A program made the translations under genes and the position numbers. Under the pieces are notes generated by a model. That model saw nothing but the letters and a program-made list of their open reading frames with translations. It did no database searches and was not told the origin of the DNA. 64,000 nt of DNA, taken from positions 12,680-76,679 of the forward strand of contig CAZQHU010000002.1 in assembly GCA_964592785.1 (NCBI GenBank), in the 5' to 3' direction. Positions 11,455 to 63,506 of the stretch are shown piece after piece; the first letter of the stretch is position 1, and each line of letters opens with the position of its first letter. The DNA comes from an uncultured Gammaproteobacteria bacterium (lineage in GTDB: Bacteria; Patescibacteriota; Patescibacteriia; Magasanikbacterales; UBA922).

Positions 11455-12399
11455 TCAAATTTCAAAACTTTTTAGATAACCATTGACAAAACTCCTGGCA
11501 TTTGTTGCTTTGGCACCTTCCAACTGTAATTCTACCACTTCTATTGAATTTTCACCACAACCAATAAATAATTTTTCGTTTTCCACTTTCCACTTTCCAC
11601 TTTCCACTGGCAACTCATCCAATCTAATTTTTAAAAGTTTCACTCGTTTGCCTTTCCATTCCGTCCACACTCCCGGCCAAGGCGTTAGCCCCCGATATTG
11701 GTTGTAAATATCCTTGGCAGTTTTTGTCCAATCAACTTTACCATCTTCCCGATTTAAGATTTTTGTATAGGTGGCTCGGGTATTATCTTGAGGGGTGGGT
11801 TTGATTATTCCTGAAATATAACCAGAAATAGCCTCTGTAAGGGCAAAATTGGCGATTTTAGCCAGTTTTTGGCTAAGTATGGGGTAAGTGTCGTTTGGAT
11901 CAATTTTGAGTGTTTTTTGTAGTAAAATTGGCCCGGTATCCATGCCAGCATCCATTTTCATAATCGTCACTCCAGTTTCGGTTTCACCATTTAACAAAGC
12001 TGTTTGAATAGGTGAGGCACCGCGGTATTTTGGCAGTAGGGAAGTGTGGACGTTTATGATGCCATGCTTTGGCGCATTTAAAATATTTTCTGGAATAATT
12101 AGTCCATATTGGGCACAAATTCCCCAGTCAAAAGTCTGTAAAGTCTTAAAGTCAAAAGTCTTGAGTGAGACAGGTTGTAATATTTTAAGATCGTGTTTCT
12201 CGGCCAAAATTTTTACAGCGGATTTTTGAAGCTCTTGTTTTCTGCCCACTGGTTTGTCGGGTTGAGTAATAACCAATCCAATACTAAAATTAGGATTGTC
12301 AATTAACCCTTGTAAAATTTCTGCGGCAAAGTCGTGCGTGCCAAAGAAAATGATATTGATTGTATTATTGTCCAATTGTTTTATTGTGGGACTTGACAT
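11455..12399 (-). CDS. fmt: Methionyl-tRNA formyltransferase
   Basis: IIFFGTHDFAAEIL...QPDKPVGRKQELQ...HTSLLPKYRGASPIQTALLNGETETGVTIMKMDAGMDTGPIL. Contains a (ttccac)4 repeat insertion. Confidence 0.92.
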   Translation of the reverse strand: MSSPTIKQLDNNTINIIFFGTHDFAAEILQGLIDNPNFSIGLVITQPDKPVGRKQELQKSAVKILAEKHDLKILQPVSLKTFDFKTLQTFDWGICAQYGLIIPENILNAPKHGIINVHTSLLPKYRGASPIQTALLNGETETGVTIMKMDAGMDTGPILLQKTLKIDPNDTYPILSQKLAKIANFALTEAISGYISGIIKPTPQDNTRATYTKILNREDGKVDWTKTAKDIYNQYRGLTPWPGVWTEWKGKRVKLLKIRLDELPVESGKWKVENEKLFIGCGENSIEVVELQLEGAKATNARSFVNGYLKSFEI

Positions 12400-12581
12400 G
12401 ATTTTAATTTTATGTTATGATATTTCGTCATCTAGTTATTTCCAATACCGTTGTAACGGGATAGTGTTTTTACACTATCGGAAATAATAGGATGATAATG
12501 GATGAATCTAAGTAGGTATGGGGTGTTCTAGTTCTAGGTTCCCTCGTGTTCCGTTCTAAACCCTCACCGAAAGGAGACACC

Positions 12582-12854
12582 ATGTTCAGTTACCGGATTT
12601 ACGACCACACCACGTTTCATACTGGTGGAACCGCTACAATTTTCTTTCATGTCGGTGATATCCGAATGCTTGGGCTCAATGGGACAACGATCGGATTTGT
12701 CGATGTGGAAAAAATGAGATGGTTCCGGTTTAACGGCAGAAAGCTCGCGAAAGCGAGAGTAATTCAGGCGCCAGGAATGGAAGAAACCTTCCGACCTGGC
12801 ACTGACATTCTCATCTTCGTGAGCAAATGTCGTCCCGCATATATCTTGGTCTGA
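12582..12854 (+). CDS. Small hypothetical protein (90 aa) in GC-rich island 1; paralog of the 57992-58291 protein
   Basis: Strong SD aaaggag 6 nt before the ATG. GC far above background. It shares the leader/start architecture and peptide motifs with island 3 (N-terminal FS..IxxHTTF versus FSLSVHSTSF; AKxxxxxxxG; KC). The ORF-track start at 12546 lacks an SD. Confidence 0.5.
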   Translation: MFSYRIYDHTTFHTGGTATIFFHVGDIRMLGLNGTTIGFVDVEKMRWFRFNGRKLAKARVIQAPGMEETFRPGTDILIFVSKCRPAYILV

Positions 12855-12861
12855 CTTTTGC

Positions 12862-12903
12862 CCCCGGGTAACGCGTAATGGCGACCCGGGGCTTCACTTT
12901 TTT
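12862..12903 (+). terminator. Intrinsic terminator closing GC-rich island 1
   Basis: ccccggg...cccgggg stem with a 16-nt loop, then cttcac and a T6 run. Confidence 0.6.
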
Positions 12904-13396
12904 ACTCAATTTTTTTTATATTTTTCGCTTTATCAATAAACAAAACCCCATCCAAATGATCCACTTCATGCTGAATCACTCGCGCGAAATAACCATGAGC
13001 TTTAAATTTTATTTCTTCACCATGTTCATTCCAAGCTCGTACTTCAATATCTGAATATCTTTTCACTTTGCCAATAGTTTTGGGAACTGATAAACAACCT
13101 TCTTCTTCTACATTGGTTTTACGACTAGTTTTTTGCCAAATAGGATTTACCAAAACCAAGTCAGCGATGGGTAGTTTATTTTTTTTATCCATTTTTAGAG
13201 CTTCTTGGCCAATGATACAAAGACGAATATTATGTCCAATTTGTGGAGCTGCCAAACCAATGCCATCGGACTCATACATTTTGGGGATCATCTCCTCAAT
13301 CAATTGTTGAGTTTTTTTTAATAATAAAAAATCACGGTCAATTTCTTGGGAACGTTCTCTAAGGGAAGAGGTTGGTAGGGTAATAATAGACAGCAT
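12902..13396 (-). CDS. def: Peptide deformylase
   Basis: Def motifs GLAAPQIG, EGCLSVP and HEVDHLDG. Confidence 0.95.
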   Translation of the reverse strand: MLSIITLPTSSLRERSQEIDRDFLLLKKTQQLIEEMIPKMYESDGIGLAAPQIGHNIRLCIIGQEALKMDKKNKLPIADLVLVNPIWQKTSRKTNVEEEGCLSVPKTIGKVKRYSDIEVRAWNEHGEEIKFKAHGYFARVIQHEVDHLDGVLFIDKAKNIKKIE

Positions 13397-13467
13397 ATTT
13401 TTATGTCACCCCTGCGAAGGCAGGGGTCTAATTGAGATTCCTGCTTTCGCAGGAATGACAGCTTATT

Positions 13468-13758
13468 TTATTCTTTTTTTTGCTTTTTGTCAAGGCTAGG
13501 CACTTCTTTACTTTTCCAAATAAAAAGCTTGCCAGGAGTGCTGGCGTTACTTTGTTTAATTTCCGAAAAAATTCTTTGAGCCTCTTTTACTCCAATCCTC
13601 TTGATAACTCCCAAATACATGGCAAATTTTTTTCTTTCTCCAAAAGCAGTGGAAATTTGATCCGCCCAATAATGTACTTCTGAATGTATATTTTTATTTT
13701 TTTCTTTTCTGGGCTGAATGAGTTTGCCAATACTGTCCATATTTTTAATCCAAAACAA
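13468..13758 (-). CDS. Hypothetical small protein
   Basis: ORF only, 96 aa and basic; no recognisable family. Confidence 0.3.
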   Translation of the reverse strand: MFWIKNMDSIGKLIQPRKEKNKNIHSEVHYWADQISTAFGERKKFAMYLGVIKRIGVKEAQRIFSEIKQSNASTPGKLFIWKSKEVPSLDKKQKKE

Positions 13759-16828: not shown

Positions 16829-16861
16829 AAAAAAACTGCCCAAAATGGGCAGTTTTTTTAT
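16829..16861. terminator. Bidirectional intrinsic terminator
   Basis: Hairpin aactgcccaaaatgggcagtt flanked by an A-run and a T-run. Confidence 0.7.
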
Positions 16862-17172
16862 TTTCTCGCTTCTATTCTATGTTTATCAATAAGAGCACCT
16901 ATTAAAAGTCCTATAAATACTCCTACTAAAATAGTAATAAGTGGTAATCTAATACCCAATAAATTTTGAAAAAAACTATCTATTGAAGCCACAGGGCCAG
17001 CAGGATTTAGAAAAAAATCATAATCAAACCAAGTAATTATAAAACCTATTATAAAACCAAAGACTCCACATTTTATAATCATTGTTTTTTTTGATTTCAC
17101 GGTAATCATAAATATCCCAATAATGAGTATAATTGGTGTAATTATAATCATATACCACAGGAAATTACCCAT
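16858..17172 (-). CDS. Small integral membrane protein (hypothetical)
   Basis: 104 aa with three hydrophobic helices. Confidence 0.4.
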   Translation of the reverse strand: MGNFLWYMIIITPIILIIGIFMITVKSKKTMIIKCGVFGFIIGFIITWFDYDFFLNPAGPVASIDSFFQNLLGIRLPLITILVGVFIGLLIGALIDKHRIEARK

Positions 17173-17197
17173 ATTTTTTAATAAAAAATTAATTAAT

Positions 17198-49174: not shown

Positions 49175-49207
49175 AAAAATAACCAGTAATTTCGGTTATT
49201 TTTTAAA
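49175..49207. terminator. Bidirectional intrinsic terminator
   Basis: aaataaccagtaatttcggttattt flanked by an A-run and a T-run. Confidence 0.6.
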
Positions 49208-49298
49208 AAATATTTTATTCCCCCACCCCGCGCCGGATCTTACCTTGTCTTAAAAAGACTTGGCAGAAATTCCGGCGCGGGGGCCTCGGCAGGTCGGC

Positions 49299-49775
49299 CT
49301 AGAAGACCAAGAAACGGAAACGGTACCTGAGATCATCGGTCCCAAGAGGTTCGAGCACCAACCCGTAGGCGGGGATTCCGAATCTCTGCTGGAACCACTG
49401 CAGACCATCATGAGCGGTCTGAATGTTCTCCAGATCACCCAAACCGCCATCGGCAGCAGCGTGGCAACCGACCACCGAACCCCGTCCGATGTGGGTGATC
49501 CCCACGAAGTGTGTAGGCTGGAAGATCCTCACCGCCCGCTCCAACAACTCACGGTTGTTGAATGGCGACCCTTCTGCCAGCCCGAGAATGGTACCGGGAG
49601 TAGCCACGACGTGCTTATCCCAGCCCTTGGAGCCGGCAGCACAGTCGATCCCCATCATCAGTTTCACGGAAAATCGATCATCTGAACACACGGCAAAAAG
49701 CACGCGTGCACCCTCCGGAATCAACAGTTCACTCAACTTGACCACATCAACCATAACTGAAGTAACTTCGGGCAT
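49299..49775 (-). CDS. Hypothetical 158-aa protein in GC-rich island 2
   Basis: About 60% GC in a roughly 33% GC background. SD GAGGTG 5 nt before the ATG (MPEVTSV...). Plus-strand ORFs here look non-proteinaceous. No family recognised; weak flavodoxin-like/CxDxR-like hints only. Confidence 0.45.
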   Translation of the reverse strand: MPEVTSVMVDVVKLSELLIPEGARVLFAVCSDDRFSVKLMMGIDCAAGSKGWDKHVVATPGTILGLAEGSPFNNRELLERAVRIFQPTHFVGITHIGRGSVVGCHAAADGGLGDLENIQTAHDGLQWFQQRFGIPAYGLVLEPLGTDDLRYRFRFLVF

Positions 49776-49855
49776 CTGACACCTCACTTTTCTTTGTTTA
49801 TTACCGGTTTCCGCCGGTACGGTTCCCTTTCCGCCGAGGAAGGGTGTTGCTAGAA

Positions 49856-49884
49856 CTTATATCAAAAAATCTTAAAAAAGTCAA
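49856..49884 (-). promoter_or_regulatory. Sigma70-like promoter driving island 2
   Basis: Minus strand TTGACT, a 17-nt spacer, then TATAAG; about 90 nt upstream of the ORF. Confidence 0.55.
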
Positions 49885-49933: not shown

Positions 49934-50359
49934 TTATTCTCTCGGTTTGACTGATGAATGATGATGAATAATTTTCCATTCTCCTTGGTCATTTTTTTGC
50001 CACACAAATGAAAATCTAGCTTCAACTACCTGTCTATTTGATTCCGGACCAACTTCAAAATTATACATTCCAGAATGGAGATAAACATCCTGCCCCAAAA
50101 CTTGAACTTCATCCTGCACTATTTCACCATTAGGATTTTTTTTCAAAAAATGATGAAAATAACTCTCTGCCCCAGACTGACCTTTTTTAAATTCAGAAGA
50201 AACGGTTGGTAAAAATGTGGCCTCTGGTGTATATAAATCAGCAACAACTTTAGGATCACGTGTTAACAAAGCTTCACCCCAACGAGAAAAATTATTTTTA
50301 GCAATTTCGTTAAATTCAATTTCTCTATTTTTTGTAGAACTTTCTTGTGTATCTGACAT
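49934..50359 (-). CDS. SnoaL/NTF2-like fold protein (DUF4440-like)
   Basis: 141 aa with an NTF2-like pattern (WGEALLTRDPKVVADLYTPEATF...W..I). Confidence 0.5.
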   Translation of the reverse strand: MSDTQESSTKNREIEFNEIAKNNFSRWGEALLTRDPKVVADLYTPEATFLPTVSSEFKKGQSGAESYFHHFLKKNPNGEIVQDEVQVLGQDVYLHSGMYNFEVGPESNRQVVEARFSFVWQKNDQGEWKIIHHHSSVKPRE

Positions 50360-57477: not shown

Positions 57478-57753
57478 CTATTCTTTTTTGTCATTGCTTC
57501 CCTTTTCAATATTTTGATATTCTTTTCCGTAAGCTTTGGCTTTCTTATAAATCATCTTGCCAGAAAGTAATACTGCCAAGACAAAAGCCAAAACTGTAAA
57601 CCATGGACTCTTTTCATATTTGCCGTCCAACCACTGCCCAATAATAACAAAAATGATTATTGGCACCGCAATGGTTGCCCCAAAATCTCCGGCGATACGT
57701 AATCCCATTAACATATACTTCCGGTCGTTTGGATCAGACGGCAAAAGGCTCAT
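57478..57753 (-). CDS. atpZ: AtpZ/AtpI-family small membrane protein
   Basis: 91-aa two-TM protein immediately upstream of atpB. Confidence 0.6.
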   Translation of the reverse strand: MSLLPSDPNDRKYMLMGLRIAGDFGATIAVPIIIFVIIGQWLDGKYEKSPWFTVLAFVLAVLLSGKMIYKKAKAYGKEYQNIEKGSNDKKE

Positions 57754-57921
57754 ACACTAGTCTCGCCGTAGCTTGCTGAGTGGCAAGCGAAGGCAGATTG
57801 AAAAGAAAAAGCACTTTTTTAAAGTGCCGCTATTTTACCCTATTTCAAAACCCCCGTCAAGTGTATTTTTTAGTTAGAATGTGGATGAAAAACAACTCAA
57901 TTTTAATATCCACAATAAGAC

Positions 57922-57950
57922 TTGACAATTTTCAAAACTTTTGCTATATT
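57922..57950 (+). promoter_or_regulatory. Near-consensus sigma70 promoter driving GC-rich island 3
   Basis: TTGACA, a 17-nt spacer, then TATATT. Confidence 0.65.
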
Positions 57951-57970
57951 TAGCGGTCCAATCGGGGACC

Positions 57971-57985
57971 CCTCCTTGAAGGAGG
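57971..57985 (+). promoter_or_regulatory. Perfect hairpin CCTCC-TTGA-AGGAGG sequestering the SD of the island 3 ORF
   Basis: cctccttgaaggagg is a 6-bp perfect stem; AGGAGG is the SD, placed 6 nt before the ATG. Confidence 0.6.
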
Positions 57986-57991
57986 AACACC

Positions 57992-58291
57992 ATGCATTTT
58001 TCACTGTCCGTTCACAGCACCTCGTTCCTGATCATGGTCATCAGAAAGAGAGGGCGTAGGATTGCTGCGTTCGCAGGGCCAACTCGAGAAGACATCCTGA
58101 GACTGATGAATGGCATGGGCTACGACCCCCAGGAGATCTCCACCGCGCATGAGGCCACACCGCGACACCTGGAAATGATCGCGAAATACCAGGCGCGATC
58201 GTTCGCCGGCTTCATCATTGCGATGATGAAGAGTGGAAAATGCTCCGAAGAGTCCTACTACATCGGTGAACTCTACAAGCGCGCTGGCTGA
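57992..58291 (+). CDS. Small hypothetical protein (99 aa) in GC-rich island 3; paralog of the 12582-12854 protein
   Basis: Consensus promoter and AGGAGG SD; GC-rich; leader, start and peptide motifs shared with island 1. Confidence 0.55.
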   Translation: MHFSLSVHSTSFLIMVIRKRGRRIAAFAGPTREDILRLMNGMGYDPQEISTAHEATPRHLEMIAKYQARSFAGFIIAMMKSGKCSEESYYIGELYKRAG

Positions 58292-58443
58292 GCGAGTCTC
58301 AATCATCACGAATGCCTCCAGCATGCCCGGCACGCAACCACCCCACCAGTGCCGGCATCGTTCTTTCCCACCACTCCGGCACACCCCAGTTATTATCTCT
58401 AGAAGGTAATAAATGAAAAAAACCGGAGTGAGTGAAGAAAAAT

Positions 58444-58481
58444 AAAAACAACTTTAAATTTTAAGGTTGTTTTTTATTTTT
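58444..58481. terminator. Bidirectional intrinsic terminator (serves island 3 and tatD)
   Basis: aaaaacaac...ggttgttttttattttt. Confidence 0.7.
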
Positions 58482-58508
58482 CCTCCTTTCGCAAAGGGAG
58501 GAATTAAA

Positions 58509-59459
58509 TTATACTTTTATTTTATTGAAAAGTCGTAAAGCATTTTCCAAAGTAATTTTCTCCACTTCCTCAACAGATAAATGCCTAATCCCCGCAATTT
58601 TCTTCACCACTTCTTCCACCATCCAAGGTTCACATTTTTGCCCGCGATAAGCTTGAGGGGCCAGATATGGCGCATCGGTTTCCACCAAAATTCTATCCAA
58701 AGGACATTTTTCCACAACTTCCAATAAATCCAATGTTGGTTGAGGATCAGTTTTACGTGCAGGAAAAGTGATGACACCAGTGAAACCAATATAGAGTCCC
58801 AAAGTAAGGAATTTTTCTGCTTGTTGCCAATTACCGCCATAGCAGTGGACTACGCCCCAAGGTTCATTCCGAATCCCGCTCAAGCGGAGTGAGGAATCTT
58901 TCGAAGTAAGAACCTGTTGAATTACATTAGAATTGTGTACCCCAAAGTTATCTTCTCCGAAAGATTTCTCGCCTTTTAGTCTCGAAATGAGTGGAAACAT
59001 CTCATCGTAAGCATCGCGAATGTGAATAACAAGAGGTAAATTATGCTTTTGCGCAAAATTATATTGCTTAATAAAAATTTCTCTTTGTTTCTCTAAAACT
59101 TTTTCTTTATCTAACTCTTCCGGAAGATGAAAAAGTTCCAGCCCACACTCCCCTACTGCTATCACTTTTTTTGACTGTGCCAATTCATCATAAAATTTTT
59201 CATCAAAATCTTCTTCGTGCGATAAAAAACTGGATTCTTCCTCGTCTACTTGTTTGGCATGAAGGTGAATTGGATGAAGACCAATTGTCGCATAAATATT
59301 TTCATATTTTTCTGCCATTTCCACAGCTTTTTTACTGGTGTCCATTTGTGTACCAACAGCATTCATAACCACACCTTTCTGACGACAACGCGACAAGACG
59401 GCCTCGCGGTCGTCTTGATATCCTTGAAACTGAATATGACAATGAGTATCAATCATCAT
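58509..59459 (-). CDS. tatD: TatD-family metal-dependent hydrolase
   Basis: MMIDTHCHIQF and later His/Glu/Asp motifs; contains an in-frame repeat-element insertion at 58862-58898. Confidence 0.88.
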   Translation of the reverse strand: MMIDTHCHIQFQGYQDDREAVLSRCRQKGVVMNAVGTQMDTSKKAVEMAEKYENIYATIGLHPIHLHAKQVDEEESSFLSHEEDFDEKFYDELAQSKKVIAVGECGLELFHLPEELDKEKVLEKQREIFIKQYNFAQKHNLPLVIHIRDAYDEMFPLISRLKGEKSFGEDNFGVHNSNVIQQVLTSKDSSLRLSGIRNEPWGVVHCYGGNWQQAEKFLTLGLYIGFTGVITFPARKTDPQPTLDLLEVVEKCPLDRILVETDAPYLAPQAYRGQKCEPWMVEEVVKKIAGIRHLSVEEVEKITLENALRLFNKIKV

Positions 59460-60001: not shown

Positions 60002-60094
60002 ATAGATTAATTTTAAAATTAAAATTTTTAATTTTTATTGACCCCTGCCGGACGGAAGCTTGGTTTTTTGCTTCCGTCCGGCAGATTCTGATCC

Positions 60095-60286
60095 TCACGA
60101 CATCTTTTCAACACTTTGTCCTCGAGTCAGCCACTGCCAACCCACAACGAAGTAGTAAGCAGTGTGTCTCCAGACAAGACCGGAAATGTACCAATACCGC
60201 TGCCTAACCGTAAGCGGCTTGGTATCCATCTTGACAACACCGACCCCCTTGCCCCACCATAGAGTCTTTTCCGCTGAAGTAGCCAT
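60095..60286 (-). CDS. Small Trp-rich hypothetical ORF (64 aa) in GC-rich island 4
   Basis: AGGGGG SD-like sequence 7 nt before the ATG (MATSAEKTLWWGKG...); GC-rich; a 16-bp perfect hairpin follows. May be a structured RNA rather than a protein. Confidence 0.3.
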   Translation of the reverse strand: MATSAEKTLWWGKGVGVVKMDTKPLTVRQRYWYISGLVWRHTAYYFVVGWQWLTRGQSVEKMS

Positions 60287-60297
60287 TGGCAAACCCC

Positions 60298-61830
60298 CTA
60301 TTTTTCGAGCCGTGGAAAAAGAATTTCCTTTGCGCCTATGAGAGATCCCCCCCTAAGCGCGCCCCATGTTACTACTTTATCACTTGTATTTAATTGATTC
60401 AATATCTTTTCCGCAGTCTCGGGAATAATCGGAAATAAAGCCACAGCAATATGACGCAAACCTTCAGCTAGCTGATATAACAAACCAGAAATGTCTTCAC
60501 CAGCTTTGGCTTTTTTCCAAGGTTCTTGTTCAGAAATGAAACCGTCTAATCCTGCAACAAACTTATTTATTAAATTAACAACTTCTTCAAATTTATATTC
60601 ACCTAAATATTTATTATACTCTGTCCAAAAACTTTCCACTTTCCACTTTCCACTTTCCACTTGAGGAATCTTTGATTCCGAATATTTTTCAACCATTGTT
60701 AAAATCCTACTAGTCAAATTCCCTACTCCATTTACAAGATGTGCGGTATAAAATTCTTCAAAACGAGTAATACTAAAATCACCATCATCATAAGCTGGCA
60801 TGCCTCCAAGCAAAAAATAACGTACTGCATCTGTACCATATTTTTCAACTACTTTATAAGGTTCCACTACATTACCAAGAGATTTACTCATCTTTTGTCC
60901 TTCAGAAGTAATAAATCCATGAATAAACACTTGTTTTGAGTTTGGTAAACCAGCTGACATGAGCATTGCTTGCCACATAGCAGTCTGCTGACGTAAATTG
61001 TCTTTACCAGCTACTTGTACTCCCGGCCAAAACTCTGTATATAAGTCGGGTTTACCCGCCGAAGCTTTAGCGTAGATGGGCTTGTCCGGCGTAGCCTTGG
61101 CGAAGCCGGGCCAACCGAGTGTGGAAATATAGTTTATCAAAGCATCAAACCAGACATACATTACTTGCGTTTCATCTCCTGGTACAGGAATACCCCAAGG
61201 CATTTTTTCAGCCAATCTAGAAATACTAAAATCTTCCAAACCTCGCTCAACAAAGTTTTTAATTTCTAGCTGTCTATTTTGAGGTATAACAAAATTTGAA
61301 TTTTTTTCGTATAATTTTAATAAAGGTTTTTGGTATTTAGAAAATTTAAAAAAATAATTTTCTTCTTCAATTAATTCCAATTCCAAATTGGGGTGAACTG
61401 GACATTTACCATCAACTAGCTCTGAATCCGTTTTTTCCAATTCACAACCTACACAATATTTAACACTATAATTCTTTTTATAAATATCACCATTTTTTTC
61501 ACATAATTTCCAAAATTCCTGAGCAGCTTCTATGTGATGTTTATCAGTGGTGCGAATAAAATTGGTATAACTTAAATTCAAAGCTTGCTTCAAAGAATCA
61601 AATTTAGCAGCATATTCATCACAATATTTTTGTGGGTCAATTCCCAACTCTGTGGCTTTGCGAAAAATCTTTAGGCCGTGTTCATCCGTACCAGTATTAA
61701 AAATTACTTCTTCACCCAATAATTTGTGATAACGAGCGAGAACATCAGCTTGAATAATTTCCAAAGCAAAACCGATGTGAGGTTCAGCGTTTACATATGG
61801 CAAGGTGGTTGTAATATAATAGTTTTTCAT
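60298..61830 (-). CDS. metG: Methionyl-tRNA synthetase
   Basis: TTTLPYVNAEPHIGFALE (HIGH), KMSKS, and a zinc-knuckle CxxC...CPVH. Carries a (ttccac)4 insertion and a 30-nt tandem duplication. Confidence 0.95.
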   Translation of the reverse strand: MKNYYITTTLPYVNAEPHIGFALEIIQADVLARYHKLLGEEVIFNTGTDEHGLKIFRKATELGIDPQKYCDEYAAKFDSLKQALNLSYTNFIRTTDKHHIEAAQEFWKLCEKNGDIYKKNYSVKYCVGCELEKTDSELVDGKCPVHPNLELELIEEENYFFKFSKYQKPLLKLYEKNSNFVIPQNRQLEIKNFVERGLEDFSISRLAEKMPWGIPVPGDETQVMYVWFDALINYISTLGWPGFAKATPDKPIYAKASAGKPDLYTEFWPGVQVAGKDNLRQQTAMWQAMLMSAGLPNSKQVFIHGFITSEGQKMSKSLGNVVEPYKVVEKYGTDAVRYFLLGGMPAYDDGDFSITRFEEFYTAHLVNGVGNLTSRILTMVEKYSESKIPQVESGKWKVESFWTEYNKYLGEYKFEEVVNLINKFVAGLDGFISEQEPWKKAKAGEDISGLLYQLAEGLRHIAVALFPIIPETAEKILNQLNTSDKVVTWGALRGGSLIGAKEILFPRLEK

Positions 61831-61861: not shown

Positions 61862-62224
61862 TTAGGATAGGTTAGATTCTGTAGATCGAATTAAACCATT
61901 AATTAACTTTGCAATTTCAATACTTTGTTCACCTAATTTCCGACTTATTATACCATCAATAAAATTTAAATCTTTAGCTAATAAAATAAAATTTTGGACT
62001 TCTGCCACTGAACCCCTAGCTTGATAATAAAATCTTATTTTATCCTTAAAATGATATCTAGCAAAACCTTCAGCAATATTGGCAGTTATGGAACTAGAAG
62101 CTCTTCGTAACTGACTAATAATTCCATATAATTCTTCTCTTGGCAAATCATTTGTCATCTTATAAATTTCTAATACTAGCAAATGACCCTTCTTCCAAGC
62201 ATCTAGATCATAAAAATTCATCAT
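61862..62224 (-). CDS. Four-helix-bundle protein of the 23S rRNA intervening-sequence (IVS) protein family
   Basis: MMNFYDLDAWKKGHLLVLEIYKMTNDLPREELYGIISQLRRASSSITANIAEGFARYHFKDKIRFYYQARGSVAEVQ is typical of the TIGR02436/S23-IVS family. Confidence 0.8.
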   Translation of the reverse strand: MMNFYDLDAWKKGHLLVLEIYKMTNDLPREELYGIISQLRRASSSITANIAEGFARYHFKDKIRFYYQARGSVAEVQNFILLAKDLNFIDGIISRKLGEQSIEIAKLINGLIRSTESNLS

Positions 62225-62243: not shown

Positions 62244-62268
62244 ATTTACTAATTACTACTTACTAACC
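62244..62268. repeat. Right 25-bp perfect inverted repeat; supplies the last codons and stop of rsmI
   Basis: ctatttactaattactacttactaa is the reverse complement of the left copy. Confidence 0.85.
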
Positions 62269-62984
62269 ACCACCACAAATTCCCCTTTTTCACTAATATT
62301 CATTTTTAAAATTTCTTGAATTGTTCCTCGATAAACAGTTTCAAATTTTTTGGTCAACTCACGACAAACGCAAATCTGTCGTTTTTTATCCAAAACTTCG
62401 GCCAATTCGCCCAAACATTTCTTGATCCTATGTGATGATTCATAAAAGGCCACAGTATATTCTGCTTTAACCACTTCTTTAAAAAATGTTTGTCGGCCTT
62501 TTTTGTGTGGAGGAAAACCGAGAAATAAAAATTTATTCGTATCAAACCCTGATATAGATAATGCAGTTATAACTGCGCTTGGACCTGGGATTGGCACTAC
62601 CACGTCATCCTGAGCGATAGCCGAAGGATCTCTTTCCTCAACGAGATATTTCGACTTTGCCCTTCGGGCTTCGCTCAATATGACGCTAACAAGTTCATTC
62701 CCCGGATCACTAATCCCTGGTGTACCGGCATCAGTTACCAAGGCCAGATTCTTACCACTTTCTAATAATTTCTCAATTTCCATTAATTTCCCAGTCTCGC
62801 TATGTTGATGATAAGAAATTGTTTTGGTTTTTATATTAAAATGATTCAAAAGTTTTTGGGTATTCCTGGTATCCTCGCATAAAATAAAATCCACGTCCTT
62901 TAAAATTTCCAAAGCACGCAAAGTAACATCACCAAGATTTCCAATTGGTGTAGCCACTATGTAGAGTTTGCCTAGTTCTGACAT
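62256..62984 (-). CDS. rsmI: 16S rRNA (cytidine1402-2'-O)-methyltransferase RsmI
   Basis: LYIVATPIGNLGDVTLRALEILKDVDFILCEDTRNTQKLL; tetrapyrrole-methylase fold; contains a roughly 22-aa insertion. Confidence 0.88.
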   Translation of the reverse strand: MSELGKLYIVATPIGNLGDVTLRALEILKDVDFILCEDTRNTQKLLNHFNIKTKTISYHQHSETGKLMEIEKLLESGKNLALVTDAGTPGISDPGNELVSVILSEARRAKSKYLVEERDPSAIAQDDVVVPIPGPSAVITALSISGFDTNKFLFLGFPPHKKGRQTFFKEVVKAEYTVAFYESSHRIKKCLGELAEVLDKKRQICVCRELTKKFETVYRGTIQEILKMNISEKGEFVVVVSK

Positions 62985-63020: not shown

Positions 63021-63048
63021 CTTGATAATAATAAAATATGTGGTAAAA
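63021..63048 (+). promoter_or_regulatory. Putative promoter of GC-rich island 5
   Basis: TTGATA, a 16-nt spacer, then TAAAAT. Confidence 0.45.
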
Positions 63049-63049
63049 T

Positions 63050-63290
63050 AACTTTATCTTGTCAAAGGAGACCTATCTTCGAAGAAAGACAGCACCTACC
63101 GCTACGCAGGGAAAGTGGCTACACGCCGTTCAACTGCCTGGCTATCCTTCTGGATGGCCTCTTCGACCTCGTCGCCCTTCTCCAAGACAAGTGGCGCCAA
63201 GCCGCTTGAACCATTCGCCGGCCAGCTATCCACGCGCCGGCACTTCCAAAAATAAACCCGCCCCACATATTCCGGGGCGGGTATTTTTAT
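63050..63290 (+). ncRNA. GC-rich island 5: candidate small RNA, or degenerated relative of the island 1/3 genes
   Basis: About 240 nt at more than 55% GC between a promoter-like element and a strong terminator. Its only ORF starts at TTG without an SD and encodes a P/R/S-rich low-complexity peptide. Its 5' end (aaaggagac...) resembles the island 1 leader. Confidence 0.3.
63255..63289. terminator. Bidirectional intrinsic terminator (island 5 and the ferredoxin/nifU operon)
   Basis: acccgccccacatattccggggcgggt flanked by A-runs and T-runs. Confidence 0.75.
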
Positions 63291-63320
63291 CCTCTTCTTT
63301 TTAAAAGTAAAAGAGGAAAA

Positions 63321-63506
63321 CTACTCCAATATAATTGCTCCAACTGGACAATTGTCCCGAGCGTCATTCAAAGCTTGTTCGCTATCACCGGGTGGATTGA
63401 TCCCCACAGCCTTACCATCATCTTCTATTTTAAAACTTCCAGATGCCAAAATAGGGCAAGTACCACAACCAATACAAAGATCTTTATTTACTTTTACTTT
63501 AACCAT
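63321..63506 (-). CDS. Small 4Fe-4S ferredoxin
   Basis: CIGCGTCPILA...DNCPVGAI. Confidence 0.85.
   Translation of the reverse strand: MVKVKVNKDLCIGCGTCPILASGSFKIEDDGKAVGINPPGDSEQALNDARDNCPVGAIILE

Follow-up and report, generated by a model that had tools for sequence, protein, structure and literature searches.

A strain-variable, GC-rich cassette with an orphan reading frame and a strongly folded predicted transcript at the def-fmt junction of a Candidatus Magasanikbacteria genome

Results

Filled and empty alleles of the def-fmt junction

The DNA analysed here is a 64,000-nucleotide (nt) stretch, hereafter the window, of contig CAZQHU010000002.1 (assembly GCA_964592785.1, positions 12,680 to 76,679), assigned to the Magasanikbacterales of the Patescibacteriota, and our subject is a segment of it, island 1, that lies between the genes fmt (11455-12399, - strand) and def (12902-13396, - strand). 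In the window the two genes are 502 nt apart. A first-pass annotation, made from the letters alone, had held that fmt and def are normally a tight pair and that a small gene has been inserted between them on the opposite strand, and related assemblies bear it out on both counts. One of them (Logan SRR10276719_11418, here L015) matches the window at ~99% identity to either side of the island, yet its def/fmt junction is empty and reads def TAA-A-ATG fmt, with a spacer of 1 nt. Alignment with this empty-site strain delimits an inserted segment of 501 nt at 12400-12900; it has gone precisely into the 1-nt junction between the stop codon of def and the start codon of fmt, and is oriented antisense to the operon.

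The window and two further assemblies, L001 and L002, have the island; L015 lacks it, as does a second assembly, L016, that has the same empty site. The island is missing too from the outgroups L013 and L011, whose Def proteins are 75-77% identical and whose def-fmt spacers measure 6 and 67 nt (by its Def homologues the window belongs to Candidatus Magasanikbacteria, with a nearest named relative that is 77% identical), and the pair is tight in five of eight more distant Patescibacteria, the other three having unrelated membrane-protein genes or spacer DNA between def and fmt. The surroundings are those of a housekeeping region: the operon order is clpB - PBP - Memo - def / fmt - wzy, and Memo/LigB, glycosyltransferases, tRNA synthetases and ATP synthase are among the neighbours. 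The island sequence is identical in all three carriers. Since two of these copies come from independent Sequence Read Archive (SRA) assemblies, the island is not an assembly artefact; by the same token, the three copies provide no sequence variation from which a ratio of nonsynonymous to synonymous substitution rates (dN/dS) or covariation could be computed.

The insertion is accompanied by changes in both flanking genes. In island-bearing strains the 5' end of fmt (12328-12399, - strand) encodes MSSPTIKQLDNNTINIIFFGTH, compared with MLNSTKIVFFGTH in the empty-site strain, a difference that amounts to 27 extra nt plus several substitutions over the first ~20 codons, past which the identity of the two alleles returns to ~99-100%. 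Because both outgroups and the empty allele have the Fmt N-terminus KIVFFGTH in common where the filled allele has its own sequence, the filled allele is the derived one. On the other side, the last two sense codons of def (12905-12910, - strand) differ, so that the protein ends in KKIE* where the island is present and in KKNE* at the empty site. Further into fmt, at 12057-12232, the window departs from L001/L002 at 56 of 176 positions, with nearly identical sequence to either side, and over this interval the window is identical to the empty-site strain L015. The interval is a patch that recombination has brought in from a diverged donor, and it is plausible that the island spreads between strains in a similar manner, by homologous recombination of the flanking core genes.

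The composition of the island departs from that of the locus. The window has a GC content of 35.4%, fmt of 38% and def of 34.5%, compared with 46.8% for 12440-12903 and 55% in its peak 150-nt window. The GC-rich segment had originally been given an extent of ~460 bp. The elevated GC content of that part stands, but the boundary does not, as the left arm of the insertion (12400-12515, 116 nt) is only 29% GC and belongs to the same 501-nt event as the core (12516-12895), which is 50.0% GC. A core at 50% in a window at 35% marks the base composition of the island as foreign, although three islands elsewhere in the window (49182-49859, 57928-58454 and 63033-63343) are stronger, reaching 61-63%.

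A predicted expression unit antisense to the operon

The core of island 1 contains an open reading frame (ORF) of 90 codons followed by TGA at 12582-12854 on the + strand, as first reported. It is preceded by a Shine-Dalgarno (SD) sequence, AAAGGAG at 12570-12576, which had been described as lying 6 nt from the ATG; the motif is there, but the spacing to the start codon at 12582 is 5 nt. An ATG-initiated ORF of at least 90 amino acids (aa) arises in 6.3% of dinucleotide shuffles of the sequence, and one that also has an SD-like motif in 0.4% (p about 0.004). The frequency of purines at codon position 1 is 65.6%, close to the 65.9% of fmt and the 64.6% of def (p = 0.009 in comparison with shuffles that keep the frame open). 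The Logan pipeline called the ORF as a gene in two assemblies. In the protein collection, the 90-aa ORF is on record from Logan assemblies only, and a 99-aa ORF of another GC-rich island of the window, island 3, is on record nowhere; gene callers evidently disagree on ORFs of such atypical composition. The coding status of the 90-aa ORF is thus a matter of sequence statistics.

Upstream of the ORF, a promoter scan predicts a sigma-70-like promoter at 12393-12421 (+ strand) with 11 of 12 consensus matches plus a TG: its -35 element, TTGACA, occupies 12393-12398 and is separated by a 17-nt spacer from an extended -10 element, TGtTATGAT, that ends at 12421, which would place the start of transcription near 12428. 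The -35 element overlaps codons 1-2 of fmt, where the empty allele reads TTAACA. The change to TTGACA, a Leu-to-Ser substitution in Fmt, therefore completes the -35 consensus, and one might suppose that this change is adaptive. A second, weaker promoter-like site (12417-12445, - strand; nine of 12 matches) faces fmt, with a -35 element TTGGAA at 12445-12440, a 17-nt spacer and a -10 element TATCAT at 12422-12417, and it lies wholly within the inserted DNA. Since the -10 elements of the two sites overlap, the arrangement is possibly a bidirectional promoter, which may replace the former def-fmt coupling in serving fmt.

At the other end, a GC-rich hairpin followed by a U-run at 12860-12903 (+ strand; minimum free energy (MFE) -21.4 kcal/mol, z = -3.3 relative to shuffled sequences) resembles a terminator. 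Its stem spans 12860-12892 and is followed by CUUCAC and then UUUUUU (12898-12903), the U-run overlapping the def stop codon (12902-12904, - strand). The claim that the unit ends in a GC hairpin terminator survives as regards the hairpin; the U-run is displaced, and a scan for strict consensus terminators makes no call here because the U-run begins 5 nt past the stem and the loop is long. As the hairpin has no U-run on the - strand, transcripts of def probably read through the island in antisense. The def gene itself has a near-consensus promoter of its own in 13400-13493 (- strand; TTGACA-17-TAAAAT, 11 of 12 matches) and a leader of ~60 nt with two GC hairpins, CATTCCTGCGAAAGCAGGAATC and CCCCTGCCTTCGCAGGGG; this leader is conserved in the empty-site strain.

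Folding of the predicted transcript

The transcript that would run from the predicted start to the 3' hairpin is strongly structured, with z = -5.7 against shuffles on the + strand and -3.5 on the - strand, and its structure is unevenly distributed. The 5' terminus (12428-12495, + strand) folds into a three-way junction (MFE -29.8 kcal/mol, z = -6.6) that accounts for 59% of the ensemble and is equalled by none of 200 shuffles. It consists of an outer stem together with a pair of hairpins, one of them a perfect palindrome, GATAGTGT-TTTT-ACACTATC (inverted repeat I1). There follows an open leader (12496-12581, + strand) that contains the SD sequence; the interval 12500-12600, with the SD sequence and start codon, folds worse than all 200 shuffles (z = +2.3). 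The mean unpaired probability is 0.44 for the SD region (12568-12575) and 0.47 for 12496-12560, both higher than in the 5' junction (0.22) and in the remainder of the ORF (0.29). An open ribosome-binding region in this folding model is the pattern expected for efficient initiation of translation.

Within the ORF, an imperfect, G-U-rich hairpin at 12645-12710 (+ strand; MFE -21.8 kcal/mol, z = -2.1) gives a weak signal, and a long irregular hairpin of ~110 nt at 12726-12837 (+ strand; MFE -53.2 kcal/mol, z = -5.8), which covers the 3' half of the ORF at codons ~49-86, is matched by none of 200 shuffles. The ORF region as a whole has a folding z of -4.9. It is also 3.6-3.8 standard deviations more stably folded than permutations of its synonymous codons (matched by none of 300) and is the most extreme of 10 coding segments tested: the corresponding z is between +0.5 and -1.6 for islands 2 and 3, def and fmt, and -3.0 for atpI. 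The models suggest that the excess is mainly due to the ~110-nt internal hairpin. Background windows of 273 nt have a mean z of -1.0 with a standard deviation of 1.8, and three of 24 lie at or below -4.2, so the structure signal is strong but not unique. The annotation had offered horizontal acquisition or a strongly structured transcript as the source of the unusual composition, and both apply, as the segment is foreign to the locus and its transcript is exceptionally folded by comparison with shuffles (z = -5.7) and with synonymous recodings (down to -3.8).

Searches for relatives

The predicted product is a 10.3-kDa protein with a pI of 9.9 and no hydrophobic segment, for which MLGLNGTTIGFVDVEK and VIQAPGMEETFRPGTDILIFVSK are predicted tryptic peptides. 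Run on the single sequence, AlphaFold2 predicts an all-beta structure with low confidence (mean predicted local distance difference test score, pLDDT, 47), and the best Foldseek match of that model in the PDB (E = 0.36) is meaningless. The initial impression that the protein belongs to no recognisable family is upheld: it has no match in Pfam (E <= 1), PHROGs, NCBIfam, PADLOC or the PDB sequences, with 0 families at E <= 1 in each of the PADLOC, NCBIfam and PHROG libraries, and a word-indexed search of 5.8 billion proteins retrieves the protein itself alone.

An exhaustive HMMER search of 1.84 billion cluster representatives returned 22 other proteins, with E-values from 1.6e-13 to 6.5e-4. All 22 are repeat proteins in which three to six stretches are matched at 4-15 bits each, and 20 of them contain a common repeat of ~45 aa with the consensus ...ALNGTDVAFID..ELRTYRFNG.... 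These E-values sum three to six near-identical repeats, and we reject the matches as inflated by repetition. When eight of the top matches were scanned, Pfam Tectonin was above its cut-off in P0005 only and below threshold in two more. There is a resemblance to these tectonin-like beta-propeller repeats, which are found at the C-termini of large proteins (P0004-P0023) that mostly have no Pfam assignment: residues 25-52 of the 90-aa protein (GDIRMLGLNGTTIGFVDVEKMRWFRFNG) look like the consensus and, by eye, a weaker second copy follows ~41-44 aa later. The differences are that a single-repeat hidden Markov model built from 79 units scores the protein at just 10.8 bits, in one match, that Pfam Tectonin does not match it (E <= 1), and that the repeat profile detects no tandem blades. 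In BLASTP, single high-scoring segment pairs reach 32.7 bits, a score that a collection of 2.4e11 residues should yield thousands of times by chance. Membership in this group was therefore dismissed, and on the searches made here the 90-aa protein is best described as an orphan whose homology to any family is not established.

Searches at the nucleotide level were similarly empty. An Rfam match, which the annotation had recognised as something that could explain the segment away as a known RNA, was not found: there is no match at the gathering score anywhere in the window and none in 12350-12960 on either strand even at E <= 10, and no covariance model identifies RNase P, transfer-messenger RNA (tmRNA), 6S, SRP, a riboswitch, a group I or II intron or a HEARO, OLE or ROOL RNA. 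ARAGORN finds no tRNA or tmRNA. Scans of viral contigs and JGI metagenomes with back-translated patterns reveal no relatives of the ORF, and tblastn and blastn of phage and plasmid records none of the island. The 20-nt palindrome of the 5' junction has 17 exact matches in metagenomes, but none extends past the palindrome, which led us to reject it as the end of a mobile element; the 3' hairpin has no exact match in viral contigs.

Nor does the island fit several known kinds of element. The insertion boundaries show neither terminal inverted nor direct repeats and no target duplication, the window contains no second copy of island 1 and no sequence similarity among its GC islands, and the ORF has no transposase motif; an insertion sequence (IS) element or a miniature inverted-repeat transposable element (MITE) was rejected on these grounds. 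An integron gene cassette was set aside in view of the predicted promoter and of a 3' hairpin in which neither strand has a GTTRRRY core. The 20 window proteins scanned with Pfam, which are a subset of its ORFs, and the Pfam-assigned genes of the related contigs include no recombinase, transposase, integrase or reverse transcriptase, and the ORF has no nuclease signature (GIY-YIG, HNH, LAGLIDADG or other) at E <= 1. A type I toxin-antitoxin system does not fit, as the protein has 90 aa rather than fewer than 60 and no transmembrane segment (the maximum 19-residue Kyte-Doolittle mean is 0.96), and the SD sequence is not sequestered, the ribosome-binding site (RBS) region being the least structured part of the RNA. 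A known anti-phage defence family is likewise excluded by the PADLOC result.

Discussion

Taken together, these observations make it probable that the strain-variable island 1 was acquired recently and is a self-contained expression cassette, similar to a phage moron, that carries an orphan gene on a structured mRNA within a core operon of Candidatus Magasanikbacteria. In its general outline it is a strain-specific, horizontally acquired ORFan gene, and thus a fairly ordinary gain of an accessory gene, but it has two unusual traits: it is inserted with base precision in a way that breaks the def-fmt coupling, and its transcript is folded beyond the needs of the protein.

The features suggest how such a cassette might work. 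Transcription would begin near 12428 from the predicted extended -10 promoter, whose -35 element is built of the first codons of fmt, and the RNA would start with the three-way junction, which might act as a 5' stabiliser. The unstructured stretch would then present AAAGGAG-N5-AUG to the ribosome for translation of a basic, beta-rich, presumably cytoplasmic orphan protein of 90 aa, and the transcript would end at the GC hairpin, with its U-run up against the stop codon of def. Because the predicted ~110-nt hairpin is stronger than the protein sequence requires, the mRNA would have been selected for strong folding or be derived from a strongly folded RNA. For the host, we would expect the translational coupling of def and fmt to have been lost and Fmt to have acquired a remodelled, longer N-terminus, with fmt probably now served by read-through, by the divergent promoter carried on the AT-rich arm, or by both. 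By analogy, the protein may have an accessory, non-essential role of the moron type, such as phage exclusion or the binding of nucleic acid by a small basic beta protein, a guess made with low confidence.

Several points weigh against a protein-coding cassette. The ORF is far more structured than the real genes of the window, the ORFs of islands 2 and 3 included, and in this respect it looks like a non-coding RNA. The absence of a homologue removes any measure of dN/dS or frame conservation, the three known copies of the island are identical and carry no evolutionary information, AlphaFold2 without an alignment is unconfident, and Foldseek finds nothing in the PDB at E <= 0.001. The U-run of the terminator is displaced. 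The ORF is also missing from the NCBI-sourced proteins of the contig, whereas that of island 2 is among them.

An alternative is that the product is a structured RNA of ~470 nt, acting as a small RNA (sRNA) or as a cis-antisense RNA to def-fmt read-through, in which the 90-codon frame is incidental or, as in dual-function RNAs, has no more than a minor second function. Such an RNA would be fully complementary to any transcript reading from def into fmt, folding is stronger on the + strand than on the - strand, and a defined 5' junction, a ~110-nt hairpin and an ORF whose folding so exceeds that of its synonymous recodings are what one would look for in a functional RNA, as is a protein without a homologue. 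GC-rich islands in AT-rich genomes are typically RNA genes, and the window itself offers a possible example at 63040-63300, with a promoter and a terminator but no credible ORF. Yet a purely non-coding RNA would not be expected to have an SD sequence at ideal spacing, an ATG and 90 open codons, a combination that arises by chance with p about 0.004, or the purine bias by codon position of real genes; the only region that folds worse than random is precisely the ribosome-binding site, no Rfam family is recognised, and structure scores that an eighth or so of background windows can rival (three of 24 at z <= -4.2) are not a unique signature. The most economical reading is of a genuine mRNA for a small protein, with unusually strong structure besides. 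We take a purely non-coding RNA to be a serious rival, although a non-coding or dual-function RNA is on the whole unlikely.

Two further explanations would deprive the ORF of its importance, and we consider each of them very unlikely. One is that the insertion matters as a regulatory rewiring of fmt, which is uncoupled from def and given a bidirectional promoter, with the + strand ORF a passenger. The overlap of the -10 elements (12416-12422), the position of the - strand site inside the insert and 10-20 nt upstream of the fmt ATG, the remodelling of the fmt N-terminus and -35 region along with the insertion, and the tolerance of other Patescibacteria for unrelated genes at this junction are all compatible with rewiring, but a site with nine of 12 matches is weak, there being thirteen such matches in 1.2 kb of AT-rich DNA, and fmt has no SD sequence in either allele; moreover, the 116-nt AT-rich arm would have been enough, which leaves 380 nt of GC-rich, ORF-bearing, terminated sequence unexplained. 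The other is that the island is a selfish or decaying fragment without function, the remnant of a mobile element, a prophage or something resembling a free-standing homing endonuclease gene. Presence/absence polymorphism inside one species would be expected of such a remnant, as would flanks altered beside the insertion after homing or imprecise repair; the orphan ORF resembles nothing known, and a homologue of island 2 adjoins an rve transposase. Against this stand the lack of terminal inverted repeats or a target duplication, the single copy in the window, the viral, metagenome, phage and plasmid collections devoid of related sequence, the missing nuclease, recombinase and transposase motifs (in the ORF, in the 20 Pfam-scanned neighbours and in the Pfam-assigned genes of related contigs) and the undecayed state of the promoter, the open RBS, the intact ORF and the hairpin.

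The closest parallel to a recently acquired expression cassette is provided by the morons of phages, genes such as gene 15 of HK97 that carry a promoter and a terminator of their own, deviate in GC content and are inserted between genes that are adjacent in relatives (reviewed in PMC3594210). Island 1 is likewise a single small gene, and for it a promoter (11 of 12 matches, with an extended -10 element) and a terminator-like GC hairpin, albeit one with a displaced U-run, are predicted; its composition is unlike that of its neighbours, it is present in some genomes and absent from others, and it separates by 502 nt two genes that are 1, 6 or 67 nt apart elsewhere. It is unlike a moron in being antisense to the host operon and in the degree to which its transcript is structured. 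Residence in a phage or prophage, which is part of the definition, does not apply, because the flanks are core genes, the 20 window proteins scanned with Pfam and the Pfam-assigned neighbours in related contigs have housekeeping roles, and the phage and viral collections searched contain no match to island 1.

Comparisons with other systems are also instructive. Strain-specific ORFans and genomic islets are gained by horizontal transfer and spread through homologous recombination of flanking core genes; island 1 resembles them in being polymorphic between genomes of ~99% identity, in its atypical composition, in its lack of a homologue and in the recombination patch nearby, and differs in lying base-precisely at a stop/start junction with remodelled flanking codons, one of which completes a -35 element. 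Dual-function and structured small-protein RNAs, among them S. aureus RNAIII/hld, SgrS/SgrT and B. subtilis SR1/SR1P, are comparable to the predicted island 1 RNA in length (a few hundred nt), in their several very stable hairpins and in the presence of a short ORF, but in island 1 the ORF makes up 58% of the transcript, and there is no Rfam family or homologue. Finally, free-standing homing endonuclease genes such as the seg and mob genes of T4 also lie between conserved genes, and island 1 is similarly a small, polymorphic gene with a predicted promoter of its own and altered flanks; its ORF, however, has none of the GIY-YIG, HNH or LAGLIDADG signatures at E <= 1, and there is no sign of a cleavage site.

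Genomes of the Candidate Phyla Radiation (CPR), or Patescibacteria, are small and streamlined, and to our knowledge little has been established about gene gain in them. Island 1 records one such event to the base, the arrival of a single orphan gene, in filled and empty alleles that are ~99% identical, and it sits inside an essential and normally translationally coupled operon. A real protein would be the founder of a new family, since the 1.84 billion cluster representatives include no relative of it; were the RNA the active part, it would be a new structured RNA. Alongside the GC-rich cassettes nearby, island 1 suggests that a small, flexible gene pool of distinct composition circulates in this lineage. 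As a clean example it surprises little and leaves current understanding in place.

Other GC-rich islands and strain-variable segments of the window

Island 2 (49182-49859), at up to 63% the GC-richest of the window, contains an ORF at 49299-49775 (- strand) for a near-orphan protein of 158 aa, which is also present, with 97% amino acid identity, in a strain without island 1. A homologue that is 72% identical and comes from another metagenome (L019, 985-1491) adjoins a transposase of the rve family. Its promoter and 5' untranslated region are almost identical to those of island 2 (CACCCTTCCTCGGCGGAAAGGGAACCGTRCCGGCGG..ACCGGTAA) and more conserved than the coding sequence, which makes this leader a candidate cis-regulatory element.

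Island 3 occupies a slot (57754-58508) between atpI (57478-57753) and tatD (58509-59459). In the window the slot contains an orphan ORF of 99 aa (57992-58291, + strand) whose SD sequence lies inside an anti-SD hairpin, and in SRR10276719 and SRR8925817 (L038, 2152-3083, and L039) a gene of 54% GC for a 144-aa protein with an MshEN domain. The two cassettes have in common a strongly structured 3' sequence of ~110 nt (window ~58345-58440), while their ORF and promoter parts cannot be aligned. Exact look-ups of the flanking proteins encoded at 49934-50359 and 57478-57753 gave no record, and the other strains were reached through different proteins. As islands 2 and 3 show analogous cassettes, GC-rich plug-in genes appear to be a feature of the flexible genome of the species, and by analogy such recurrent, partly strain-variable units support horizontal acquisition as the general explanation. 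It is tempting to go further and see in them a class, so far undescribed, of small GC-rich plug-in cassettes with promoters, which CPR strains would gain, lose and swap at core-gene junctions without an associated recombinase and whose folded RNA parts (the three-way junction and ~110-nt hairpin of island 1, and the ~110-nt 3' module of the island 3 slot) are functional; these parts would then be dual-function RNAs, a protection for a transcript embedded in antisense, or handles for recombination. We regard the existence of such a class as quite unlikely.

A fourth island (63025-63300, + strand), also of up to 63% GC, has a near-consensus promoter, TTGATA-17-TGnTAAAAT, and a clean terminator, AAACCCGCCCC...GGGGCGGGTATTTTT. 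Its interval 63040-63300 belongs to no Rfam family (the best model, ar14, scores 22 bits against a gathering score of 58.8), and its features make it a candidate novel sRNA of ~230 nt.

Other segments are more varied in character. The AT-rich interval 16856-17184 (~330 nt, 25% GC), downstream of a terminator hairpin at 16836-16858, is absent from L001 and is another strain-variable insertion or deletion; by eye, its - strand could encode a small hydrophobic protein. At 60029-60394 the GC content reaches 54%; this segment, which takes in the 3' end of a 510-aa gene (60298-61830) and sequence downstream of that gene, has a long perfect hairpin, CTGCCGGACGGAAGC...GCTTCCGTCCGGCAG, and no ORF beyond one of 65 aa that starts with TTG. 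Between that 510-aa gene and a 242-aa gene (62256-62984), a stand-alone gene at 61862-62224 (- strand), near which the window has neither rRNA nor a retroelement, encodes a 120-aa '23S rRNA intervening sequence protein' (PF05635), a four-helix bundle.

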